Shown: positions 25,160 to 28,126 of the stretch, one piece after another
Position numbering within the stretch: the stretch's first letter is position 1
Layout of the letters: the number at the start of each line of letters is the position of its first letter
Origin: Candidatus Xenobia bacterium
Lineage (GTDB): Bacteria; Vulcanimicrobiota; Xenobia; Xenobiales; QWHO01
Direction of reading: 5' to 3'
DNA: 37,902 nt
Assembly (NCBI GenBank): GCA_045863235.1
Contig: BTUM01000078.1
Location: forward strand, 1 to 37,902
Translations under genes and position numbers: made by a program
Notes under the pieces: model-generated
What the model saw: only the letters and a program-made list of their open reading frames with translations
Told to the model about the DNA's origin: nothing
Database searches by the model: none

Positions 25160-25302
25160 GGAGACGGGCAAGCTTCCAGGCCTGAGGGCACAAGCAGATC
25201 GGCTCCCGTCGCAGACCTGCGAGCCTGGCGGGTCGACTCAAACCTGGCCAGGCGTGTCAGCCAGGAGCAGGGAGCCGGTCAAGCCGCGAGAATTTCTACA
25301 CA

Positions 25303-25647
25303 ATGAAGCGCATTTTCCTGATCCTGGTCGTTCTGACGGCCGTCCTGCCGGCGCTGGCCGAGGCGGCCCGGGGCCCTCGCGTCACGCTCAACTACAATCG
25401 TGCCGACCTGCCTTACGTCGTCAAGCAACTGGGCAAGCGCATGGGGTGCAACGTCTACGTCGGTCCCGAGGTGGCCGGTCAGGTCACGCTGAGCGTCAAG
25501 GACACGCCCGCCGAGGGGGTGCTGAAGCTGGTGCTGGATCTGCAGCCGAAGCGCTTTGACTATAAGCTGGTGGGCAACACCCTGGTGGTGGCCTCTCCCG
25601 AGCGGCTGGGCTCGATCCCGACCGACCTGCTGGGGCCCCGGCGCTAG
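25303..25647 (+). CDS. Stand-alone secretin/TonB short N-terminal (STN/N0-like) domain protein
   Basis: Signal peptide; VTLNY..ADL..V...L....G.N..V.P.V.G.VTL.VKD.P...VL pattern. Confidence 0.7.
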   Translation: MKRIFLILVVLTAVLPALAEAARGPRVTLNYNRADLPYVVKQLGKRMGCNVYVGPEVAGQVTLSVKDTPAEGVLKLVLDLQPKRFDYKLVGNTLVVASPERLGSIPTDLLGPRR

Positions 25648-25714
25648 TCTCCACCGGAGTCATCGGCAGTCCAGGGGCCCGTCAGGCGTGCGGACCTGGA
25701 AGGGCCAGGGCCAT

Positions 25715-25752
25715 AAAAGCATAGTAGGCAGCGCCTACAAGACGCTGCCTAC
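25715..25752 (-). terminator. Intrinsic terminator of the candidate small RNA
   Basis: GTAGGCAGCGTC-TTGTA-GGCGCTGCCTAC (12-bp stem with one G-U on this strand), then TATGCTTTT. Confidence 0.7.
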
Positions 25753-25776
25753 CGTTCGGAGTCTTCCCGCGTATCG

Positions 25777-25824
25777 CTACGCGGCCACCCCTCCGCGGGT
25801 GGGGCGATTACTTGCGTAAATCAA
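25777..25824 (-). CDS. Putative 15-aa small peptide MIYASNRPTRGGVAA
   Basis: TTG start 5 nt after GGAGG; TAG stop at 25779-25777 inside a hairpin. Confidence 0.45.
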   Translation of the reverse strand: MIYASNRPTRGGVAA

Positions 25825-25939
25825 ACCCACCTCCTTTCCCACCGCGATCATCGCGGCATGCGGGCTCCAGGTCGGCCACCCGTTGCCCGTTTCGCAGTCG
25901 TGGCCGCGACTGCGAGAAGCTCAAACCTTTGGAGTCTCA

Positions 25940-25968
25940 ACCATACCAGGGAAAACAGCCCAAGTCAA
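25940..25968 (-). promoter_or_regulatory. Sigma70-type promoter of the candidate small RNA
   Basis: TTGACT (25968-25963), 17 bp, then extended TG-n-TATGGT (25945-25940). Confidence 0.75.
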
Positions 25969-25995
25969 GTAGGATATTCAAGCCATGCCGTGCCA

Positions 25996-27411
25996 TCAGC
26001 CTACCCGGAAGCAATCCCGCCCGGCGTCCTTGGCCGCGTACAGGGCCTGGTCGGCCCGCAGCAACAGGGCCTCCAGCTCGTGCAGGGGAGCGCTGGCCAG
26101 GCCCTGGCTGACGGTGATCCGCAGAGGCTCACCCGACCCGGTCTGGAGGGGCTTGTGCCGGATGGTCGTAGCCAGCCGGTCGGCCGTCTCGGCCGCCCCC
26201 TCGGGACCGGTTTCCGGCAAGACCGCCACGAACTCCTCACCCCCGTAGCGACCAAAGAGATCGCTGTCGCGCAGGGTCTGGCGGCAACACCGGGCCACGG
26301 CGCGCAGCACTTCGTCTCCCACCATGTGGCCATGCGTGTCATTGAACTTCTTGAAGTGATCGATGTCGAGCAGGATGAGGGTCAGCGGCCGCTGAGCCCG
26401 ACGGGCGCTCTTGAGAGCCTGCTCGGCCATCTCGAGCAGGTGGCGGCGGTTCCAGACCCCGGTCAGCTGGTCCACGCTGGCCAGCTCCTGAACCCGGGCA
26501 AACAGCCTGGCGTTCTCCAGGGCGATGCCGGCCTGACTGGCAAAGAGAAGCGCCAGCTGGCCTTCGCGTGGCGCGAAGTCCCGCTCCTCGCGAATCAGCC
26601 GCAGGGCTCCCACGGCAAGGTCCTCGCGCACCATCGGAACACTCAGGGCCTGGCCCTCCAGGACGGGCTGGCGGCTCGCCAGGCAAGTGGCTGCCCAGCC
26701 GGGAGCCGACCCGTCAGGCTCGCCCACGAACCGCTCGCTCGCCTCGTGAGGCACCACGCGGGCCAGGCCCTGCAAGAGGCGATCGAGCACCAATCCGGGA
26801 TCGAGCGTCGCGCTCAAGCTGAGGTTGGTCTCCAGCAGGATATCGGCCAGCTCACGCTCGAGGCGCTCGGCCTGAAGACGCGACTCGAGCTGAGCCGCCC
26901 GGGAAGTCTCCAGGGCCTGAGCGATATGGTTGGCCAGGGCCGTCACTCCTCCCAGGTCCCCCTCTTTGAAAAGGCCAGAGGCAAGGCGATTGTCGAGGTA
27001 GAGCACGCCCACGAGCCGATTCTGGGCCAGCAGAGGCAGGCAGAGGATGCTCCGCAGCCCGGACTCGGTGACACTGCTGCGGTCAGGGAACCGGGGGTCG
27101 CTCATGGCATCGACCACCCGGACCGGCTCTCGGGTCTGGGCCACCTGGCGCACGATCGGCATACTGTAAGGTTGGTCCAGAGCCACAAAGTGGCCCAGCC
27201 GGAAAGCAGCCGCCGGGCGCAAGCGGCCTTCCTCGGAGGCCAGCAGCAGGATGCCCCGATCGCAGCGCAGCAGCGAGACCAACCGCGCCAGAGCCTGGCG
27301 AGCATGCTGCTCGGGCTCGAGCACCGTGCCCGCGCTCAGGTTCAGTTGGAGGAGAGTCTCCATGCAGCGACCGAGCCGCGCGGCGTCAAGGTCGGATCCG
27401 GGCTCGTCCAT
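25996..27411 (-). CDS. GAF-GAF-GGDEF diguanylate cyclase
   Basis: GAF (LCLPL..Q.RLVGVLYLDN); DQLTGVWNRR, DIDHFK.FND.HGH..GD, RDSD I-site, GRYGGEEF. Confidence 0.92.
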   Translation of the reverse strand: MDEPGSDLDAARLGRCMETLLQLNLSAGTVLEPEQHARQALARLVSLLRCDRGILLLASEEGRLRPAAAFRLGHFVALDQPYSMPIVRQVAQTREPVRVVDAMSDPRFPDRSSVTESGLRSILCLPLLAQNRLVGVLYLDNRLASGLFKEGDLGGVTALANHIAQALETSRAAQLESRLQAERLERELADILLETNLSLSATLDPGLVLDRLLQGLARVVPHEASERFVGEPDGSAPGWAATCLASRQPVLEGQALSVPMVREDLAVGALRLIREERDFAPREGQLALLFASQAGIALENARLFARVQELASVDQLTGVWNRRHLLEMAEQALKSARRAQRPLTLILLDIDHFKKFNDTHGHMVGDEVLRAVARCCRQTLRDSDLFGRYGGEEFVAVLPETGPEGAAETADRLATTIRHKPLQTGSGEPLRITVSQGLASAPLHELEALLLRADQALYAAKDAGRDCFRVG

Positions 27412-27460
27412 ACTGAACCGAGTTCGGGACCGGTCCTCGCTCGCCTTCCAGGCTGCGCCC

Positions 27461-28126
27461 TCAGCAGAACAGGTCGAGGATGAGCTGGAACTTGCGGTCG
27501 TGCAGCTGGTAGTGCAGGCAGGCGGCCAGGCGAAGGCAGCTTTCGGGTCGATCGTCCTGGGCGCGCGCCAACTCCAGGGCCCGAGTGCAGAGCTCCTCGG
27601 CGTCCTGCTCGGTGGTAACGGCCATTGGCAGCTTGTGCTGCTCGGCCAGAGTGCCCAGGTAGTCATTGAGCGACAGGGCTCGCTCGGCTAAGATCTCGGA
27701 AGCTCCCGGAACGCGGGCCTGCAGGCGGCGGCGGCGAGCCAATCCAGGGCGCGAGCCGTAATCGTAGTCGCCCAGGCGCGGTGGGGCGCTGGCCTGACTC
27801 AGAGACTCGCTCAGTACGCGCTCGAAGACCTCCAACTGGGCCAGCGAGCTCACCAGGCGCCTGCCCAGCAGGCTGCGAAACACTTGCCACACCAACGCCT
27901 CCTGGCAGTGCTCCCCCGAGCACGAGCGGCGCCAGACCTGGACCAGGATGTCATCGAGTCGCACCCCCAAGGAACTCTCCCCCAGCAGGCCCTGGGCGGC
28001 GAAACCGGCCAGGTTGCGATGGATCGAAACCACCGCCTGGATGGTCTGACTGGTGAGGTCCGGGTATCGGGCCCTGTACTTGTCGGGTTCGGGAAAGAAG
28101 CTGTGCTCGCTCTGGAGGAGTTGCAT
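27461..28126 (-). CDS. Hypothetical protein
   Basis: AAGGAG RBS before ATG 28126; co-oriented directly upstream of the cyclase. No motif recognised. Confidence 0.55.
   Translation of the reverse strand: MQLLQSEHSFFPEPDKYRARYPDLTSQTIQAVVSIHRNLAGFAAQGLLGESSLGVRLDDILVQVWRRSCSGEHCQEALVWQVFRSLLGRRLVSSLAQLEVFERVLSESLSQASAPPRLGDYDYGSRPGLARRRRLQARVPGASEILAERALSLNDYLGTLAEQHKLPMAVTTEQDAEELCTRALELARAQDDRPESCLRLAACLHYQLHDRKFQLILDLFC

Follow-up and report, generated by a model that had tools for sequence, protein, structure and literature searches.

Does a short reading frame whose stop codon lies within a hairpin, and whose peptide ends in VAA, encode a tmRNA-like degradation tag, or is its function of another kind? 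The question is raised by a locus in the window, by which we mean the whole 37,902-nt stretch of contig BTUM01000078.1 (GCA_045863235.1, Candidatus Xenobia bacterium) that was analysed. On the minus strand, a TTG codon at 25824-25822 opens the peptide MIYASNRPTRGGVAA, which is ended by the TAG at 25779-25777, and this stop codon sits inside the hairpin CCGCGTA (25784-25778) GCGA TACGCGG (25773-25767). The short frame with its stop in a hairpin, pointed out in the original prediction, is real, and ARAGORN and Rfam find no tRNA or tmRNA in the window, in agreement with its remark that a tRNA-like domain is absent here.

A structured transcription unit around the short frame

At the sequence level, the frame belongs to a structured transcription unit of ~215 nt with its own sigma70 promoter motif and terminator motif (Table 1). 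It is the whole unit that goes beyond chance: the promoter motif TTGACT-17-TATGGT (1 found, 0.1 expected), the 14-bp terminator, a fold that beats all 200 shuffles (z = -4.6) and the homologues in relatives. The original prediction had overlooked the flanks of the frame. The element is present in a single copy in the source genome and would be transcribed from these signals. Words of the stretch occur in 15 RNA runs, and in contigs from four RNA libraries the element is no deeper than its flanks (depth 2-8), RNA and DNA being indistinguishable there.

Rfam gives no match in the window at gathering score or with a meaningful E-value. As identities of the element, 6S RNA, RNase P RNA and SRP RNA were rejected, as no model match falls on it and the genome's own copies, or the candidate for 6S RNA, sit on other contigs. 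RNase P RNA and SRP RNA score above the Rfam cut-off, and tmRNA is likewise encoded on another contig. The 6S RNA candidate (G000:C34:8852-9026, locus L044) lies below the cut-off (35.5 bits, E 4.7e-5).

In the 5' domain, the loops of hairpins P1 and P2 are complementary over 5-8 bases, with sequences that differ between several lineages, and this complementarity is absent in nine sequences of one genus-level group and four of another; the script used to compare the loops chose a wrong one in five sequences, and two of these were read by eye. In the window genus, the P1 strand (25915-25900) can also pair with the stop-hairpin region (25788-25773), the motif GGGTGGCCG being present at both places. 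This pairing makes a long rod the minimum-energy fold and is not general in the family.

Table 1 Features of the element and its neighbours in the window
Feature	Position	Strand	Basis or remark
Sigma70-type promoter motif TTGACT-17-TATGGT with TG extension	25940..25968	-	Similar motif 5' of most homologues
Predicted transcription start	near 25935-25933	-	From promoter motif
Hairpin P1, loop CGGCCA, complementary to P2 loop (predicted kissing loop)	25892..25915	-	Folding
Hairpin P2, loop TGGCCG	25861..25889	-	Folding
Hairpin P3, immediately 5' of Shine-Dalgarno motif SD1	25841..25857	-	Folding
SD1, GAAAGGAGGTG, 11 nt complementary to own 16S 3' end	25828..25838	-	Comparison with the genome's 16S
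TTG, originally predicted start, in frame	25822..25824	-	At that place in only 3/28 homologues
Conserved 14-codon ORF, ATT (likely start) to TAG	25777..25821	-	Homologue alignment
Switch strand CCCACCC; partner GGTGGG of SD1 (helix A) or GGGTGG at 25790-25785 (helix B)	25797..25803	-	Pairing analysis
SD2, CGGAGG, five codons ahead of stop	25790..25795	-	Homologue alignment and 16S pairing
Stop-codon hairpin, length variable among homologues	25767..25784	-	Sequence and alignment
CTCCG, complement of SD2	25757..25761	-	Pairing analysis
Intrinsic-terminator-like 14-bp hairpin with T-rich tail	25723..25753	-	Motif scan
Upstream GAF-GGDEF gene; neighbour only, not conserved beside element	25996..27666	-	Domain match
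Convergent downstream gene, weak GspD-N0-like match below cut-off; neighbour only	25303..25647	+	Domain match

Distribution of the element in the class

BLAST located the element in 16 of 60 relatives. With model R1, it was found in four families of the class, 23 of their 24 genomes having it (4/4, 16/16, 2/3 and 1/1), in 0 of 19 genomes of a fifth family of the same order, and in none of 107 genomes of other classes; models R2 and R3 gave the same picture within the class. Most carrier records bear Vulcanimicrobiota, Ca. Xenobia or Eremiobacteraeota in their title, and the genes beside the element vary by genus. The class alignment (A2) holds 28 distinct sequences, identical or near-identical copies and one sequence with Ns being left out.

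A strict pattern run on genome contigs returned 110 matches, 80 of which were scored with model R1: 14 are real, all matching class sequences, and the rest are chance. The remaining 30 were judged by eye only, among the matches listed. Since the strict pattern missed the Armatimonadota members described below, it sets no bound on the range of the element. Eighteen of the 24 matches to a metagenome pattern are further members from the same clade. Two matches to a viral pattern were dropped as apparently antisense to the 3' end of a tmRNA or tRNA, which we presume from their resemblance to it, and a loose pattern run over 401 genomes found no more than its reversed control.

The reading frame is conserved and the peptide drifts

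An in-frame stop is kept in all 28 sequences (TAG 14, TAA 13, TGA 1), at one position in 25 and one codon later in 3, and stops in the other frames are scattered. The distance from start to stop is 42 or 45 nt, and the segment 3' of the stop has 16 lengths that cover all three frames. A natural +1 insertion in G029 falls 5' of the ATT and leaves the frame intact, as do those in L175 and L180. Single-base variants of the peptide comprise 10 synonymous and 26 non-synonymous ones, a pN/pS of 0.92 that rests on small counts from related, non-independent sequences, with 20 multi-base changes left out. The fixed residues are those set by base pairing (GGA in 28/28, CCC in 26/28). Because frame, length and in-frame stop are kept in 28 of 28 sequences while the peptide drifts, we conclude that selection acts on the frame. 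The original prediction had raised the idea that translation itself, and not the peptide, is the function, and had suggested looking for conservation of the ORF length in homologues; the comparison supports this idea.

The codon 7 nt past AGGAGGU is ATT in 25 sequences, ATC in 2 and ACC in 1 (G043), never ATG, and the flanking columns are variable. Two other candidate starts, an ATG further 5' and the GTG within the SD, were rejected, the frame from them being broken in G027 and G029. The starts of the Armatimonadota homologues occupy the position of the ATT, which supports ATT as the start here. In the alignment, the ATT at 25821-25819 is most likely the conserved start codon and the originally predicted TTG start a mistaken one; the in-frame TTG may be an additional start in the window genus.

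In all 30 class loci fetched (44 genomes searched), the initiation factor gene infC has ATT or ATC as its first codon, preceded by an SD-like motif. By analogy with this shared non-ATG start, AUU initiation on the element would be slow and IF3-sensitive. In the source genome, infC (G000:C1 ~27380-27700, minus strand; L157) has an ATT start and a structured leader with a terminator-like hairpin, which we take to resemble an L20 leader. In one genus (L196, L198, L199, L202, L203, L206, L210), infC apparently starts with ATC and carries an N-terminal extension, and IF3-N matches occur more than once in each of G013, G015, G025 and G029.

Two Shine-Dalgarno motifs and their masks

The bases of SD1 opposite a C of the 16S rRNA are G in 28 of 28 sequences, and those opposite a U are only A or G. 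The SD1:16S duplex amounts to -16.4 to -17.1 kcal/mol; among 3546 long ORFs, only 20 reach -15 or better. In predicted folds SD1 is mostly paired, and opening it takes 11-18 kcal/mol, 16S pairing not counted; the predicted fold, with covariation, masks it in a conserved hairpin that leaves a 5' seed unpaired.

The strand CCCACC pairs with SD1 in helix A (90% of cells paired, two-sided change in 3 of 8 pairs) or with the downstream strand in helix B (96% of cells paired, two-sided change in 4 of 7 pairs), these counts coming from related sequences. The two helices are mutually exclusive, and both covary in the class alignment. Because adding Armatimonadota to the alignment leaves helix B weak (68% paired), this two-state part may be limited to the Xenobia class.

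A second motif, SD2, lies ahead of the stop codon. Pairing of its GGAGG with the 16S tail is worth -9.5 to -12.1 kcal/mol, and the spacing from the end of this GGAGG to the last sense codon is 7 nt in 25 of 28 sequences and 10 nt in the other 3. The pairing CGGAG:CUCCG is invariant in all 28 sequences, and protein binding could instead account for the invariance of SD2.

Homologues in Armatimonadota

A search with core model R2 of 121 genomes from the phylum to which an Armatimonadota record belongs yielded three members, and in all three the element follows an ECF-type sigma gene. This sigma gene was found in 86 of 301 genomes, and 16 of the 30 sigma loci fetched contain the element. At E 1.4e-4 or better, model R3 matched 22 of 151 genomes; 10 of these had served to train it, and each of the remaining 12 has an ORF of 12-16 codons starting with ATG, TTG or GTG. 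The Armatimonadota starts (ATG, TTG, GTG or CTG) lie at the same place as the ATT and in the same frame. Rfam gave nothing near gathering score on 12 Armatimonadota loci. In 151 genomes from the phylum of G402 (Bacillota) and as many from that of G403 (Chloroflexota), model R3 returned 7 and 2 weak matches, respectively, and model R2 run on 121 genomes of the Bacillota phylum returned 2; none of them has the layout by eye. One Armatimonadota genome has the element twice, the additional copy lying apart from the sigma gene and 5' of a methyltransferase (L330, G464:C21:260648-260742).

SD2 is kept in both phyla. Twenty-six Armatimonadota loci were given to a script, which parsed 22 and placed a GGA or GAG codon five codons ahead of the stop in 21 of these; in the four read by eye the distance is 5, 5, 6 and 6 codons. 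The stem that masks SD2 covaries across both phyla beside a nearly fixed GGAG. In L283 and L309, GAGG, still an SD core, replaces GGAG, with a matching change in the partner strand and Gly turned into Glu. The Armatimonadota peptides end mostly in RR or LR.

The same-strand gene behind the element encodes RNHCP in 4 loci and RsgA, a RIO kinase, GNAT, DUF4037 and DNA ligase in one each; in five loci of one clade, a convergent gene faces the element. We take RsgA, RIO and RNHCP to be linked to ribosome upkeep, and these neighbours suggest a connection with translation stress. A conserved promoter motif, TTTAGC-N16-CGATA, lies 250-570 nt 5' of the sigma gene in 22 of 30 loci (L264-L293), often again before the element. 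As seen by eye, the sigma leader usually has a uORF of about 21-36 codons, a strong SD and a terminator-like hairpin with a T-run. By analogy, the sigma factor is a candidate for a self-activating, translation-sensing regulator with whiB7-like logic. A tblastn search with the Armatimonadota sigma factor gave no match in the source genome. In L264, the small gene behind the element (2248-2460) reads MKREEYENDFCF followed by TTT TAG G and goes on in the +1 frame into a CPCGSG motif, which is presumably SEC-C-like; this could be an RF1-sensitive +1 frameshift or a sequencing error.

A model of ribosome holding at start and stop

Our preferred reading, to which we give an even chance, is that this stand-alone, single-copy gene is an RNA switch that is driven by translation and retains ribosomes at the start and stop codons, and that it does not make a useful peptide. 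In the resting fold, SD1 would be paired in helix A and SD2 paired to CUCCG. A 30S subunit would use the unpaired purines of SD1 as a toehold, unwind helix A and pair very strongly with SD1 through its 16S rRNA, and the strand freed from helix A would re-pair as helix B. Initiation at AUU would then be slow and sensitive to IF3, as for infC. At the stop codon, the distance from SD2 to the P-site codon would be 7 nt, as at an initiation site, so that the terminating ribosome may be anchored again and recycle slowly, with helix A re-forming behind it. The occupancy, fold and lifetime of the RNA would thus track the supply of free subunits, IF3 and recycling. We infer that its role is probably to park ribosomes or to report translation stress.

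Two published observations bear on these steps, as described in the available parts of each source: an SD close to a stop codon hinders release of the mRNA by RRF and EF-G (PMC5443523), and extended SDs allow AUU and AUA starts (PMC13009471). Three exceptions weigh against the switch model, namely the ACC at the +7 position in G043, the 10-nt spacing of SD2 in 3 of 28 sequences and the same-order family with 0 of 19 genomes. IF3 sensing would not be family-wide, because AUU is unused in Armatimonadota. A wider and more tentative proposal, which we hold at well below an even chance, is a family of ribosome-parking mini-mRNAs in which an SD on a poor start captures the 30S subunit and a second SD holds the post-termination ribosome. 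The family would be the effector arm of a translation-stress response, driven by a uORF-controlled ECF sigma factor in Armatimonadota and tuned by IF3 through AUU in Ca. Xenobia.

Alternative explanations

The main rival is attenuation: the element would be a ribosome-dependent transcription attenuator of the whiB7 type for the gene behind the terminator, its target having been lost in the window genus. A uORF followed by a terminator is the expected order, and a same-strand gene stands behind the element in the Armatimonadota loci listed above and in many class relatives. However, equilibrium folding of 34 sequences predicts the terminator in nearly all of them, with the RNA free or with a ribosome modelled at the start or stop, and reveals no consistent antiterminator. 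The downstream gene is convergent in the window, in G004, G040 and G043 and in the five Armatimonadota loci, and the element is retained nonetheless; where there are targets, they are unrelated across genera. Compared with the whiB7-type uORF attenuator, as far as the available part of PMC10274678 describes it, the element has a similar promoter, short ORF and terminator, but differs in that no antiterminator was found and a same-strand downstream gene is often lacking. On this balance we judge attenuation unlikely.

A small mRNA whose product is the 13-16-residue peptide, at a level kept low by structure and a poor start, would explain why frame and length are conserved in both phyla, and the recurring peptide motifs P-x-x-G-G and APGAGRR and the canonical starts in Armatimonadota would fit it as well. 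Yet the conserved residues coincide with those fixed by base pairing, the pN/pS is close to one, and Gly gives way to Glu in L283 and L309 where the RNA pairing is maintained, all of which make a functional peptide quite unlikely.

The two C-rich strands, CCCACC and CCUCCG, are both anti-SD-like and nearly invariant in the class and would be freed by a passing ribosome, and a dual-function or trans-acting sRNA could pair them with the SDs of other mRNAs once translation exposes them. We consider this improbable, as cis pairing explains the conservation of the strands, with covariation with SD2 in Armatimonadota. Still less can be said for a CsrA-binding sRNA with an incidental ORF: helix B presents an (N)CGGAG loop with its GGA, and CsrA was found in 3 of 5 relatives tested, but it was not found in the source genome (98% complete), G007 or G040, all of which keep the RNA, and a single loop site leaves start, frame and stop unexplained, so that the idea is very improbable.

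Finally, the SsrA-like degron or ClpX/SspB decoy that the original prediction put forward is hardly credible: the VAA end in the window genus and the LAA end of the genome's own tmRNA tag speak for it, but terminal AA, whose conservation the prediction had proposed to check, occurs in only 4 of 28 homologues (GA 11, GS 4, nine others once each), a same-genus relative ends in VAR, SspB was not found in the genome, and 649 of 56,896 ORFs of 10-20 codons in the genome end in AA. The genome has an ordinary one-piece tmRNA elsewhere (contig C2). The element resembles the mRNA-like domain of tmRNA in its short frame with a stop in a hairpin, but has its own SD and start codon in place of a resume codon and lacks both the tRNA-like domain with a CCA end and the conserved hydrophobic tag ending in AA.

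Relation to known systems

We found no report of the element in the accessible literature, and an unnamed earlier listing in the supplementary tables of RNA-motif surveys is possible. In layout, it is most similar to rreB and rreR, alphaproteobacterial small mRNAs described by Hahn et al. (PMC5711450): a stand-alone small mRNA with promoter and terminator, an ORF of 14-18 codons with a weak start, and an extended SD, most of it masked by a hairpin that leaves a 5' toehold. According to the available part of that study, rreB binds 30S subunits, is weakly translated and decays in a start-codon-dependent manner, and its 20-fold overexpression did not slow growth. Simple ribosome sequestration is disfavoured for rreB because growth was not slowed. 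In the rre genes, perfect complementarity to 16S extends over 16-17 nt and runs into GUG, whereas in the element it covers 11 nt, with an AUU 7 nt beyond AGGAGGU; the rre peptide is conserved within its clade, whereas that of the element is not (by the pN/pS above, with its small counts). In addition, the second masked SD before the stop, the alternative helix and the 5' three-hairpin domain belong to the element only. Because it would work like rreB but departs from rre genes in two criteria, we class the element as a variant among small mRNAs of the rre kind.

With the initiation region of infC the element shares an SD followed by AUU or AUC, but in the element this start belongs to a 14-codon ORF on a transcript of its own, and the SD is masked and much stronger. 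IF3-dependent autoregulation of infC has been described for E. coli (cited in the available part of PMC13009471).

As to other small mRNAs, the window region 25300-26300 contains no antisense promoter motif. Type I toxin mRNAs such as hok, aapA and timP are structured small mRNAs with a sequestered SD and alternative folds, and the element is alike in all three respects; its peptide of 14 polar residues is short and unconserved, in contrast to their hydrophobic products of 20-50 amino acids.

Small mRNAs of the rre type have been without a known function since 2016, and the present family has no known link to the rre genes. The comparison across two phyla shows selection on ribosome engagement, comprising the SD, start, frame, stop and second SD, and not on the peptide, and it ties the family to an ECF sigma factor and to ribosome-maintenance genes. 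The element would offer a compact natural substrate for asking how an SD before a stop codon affects recycling in vivo, and whether bacteria store or count ribosomes with dedicated RNAs.
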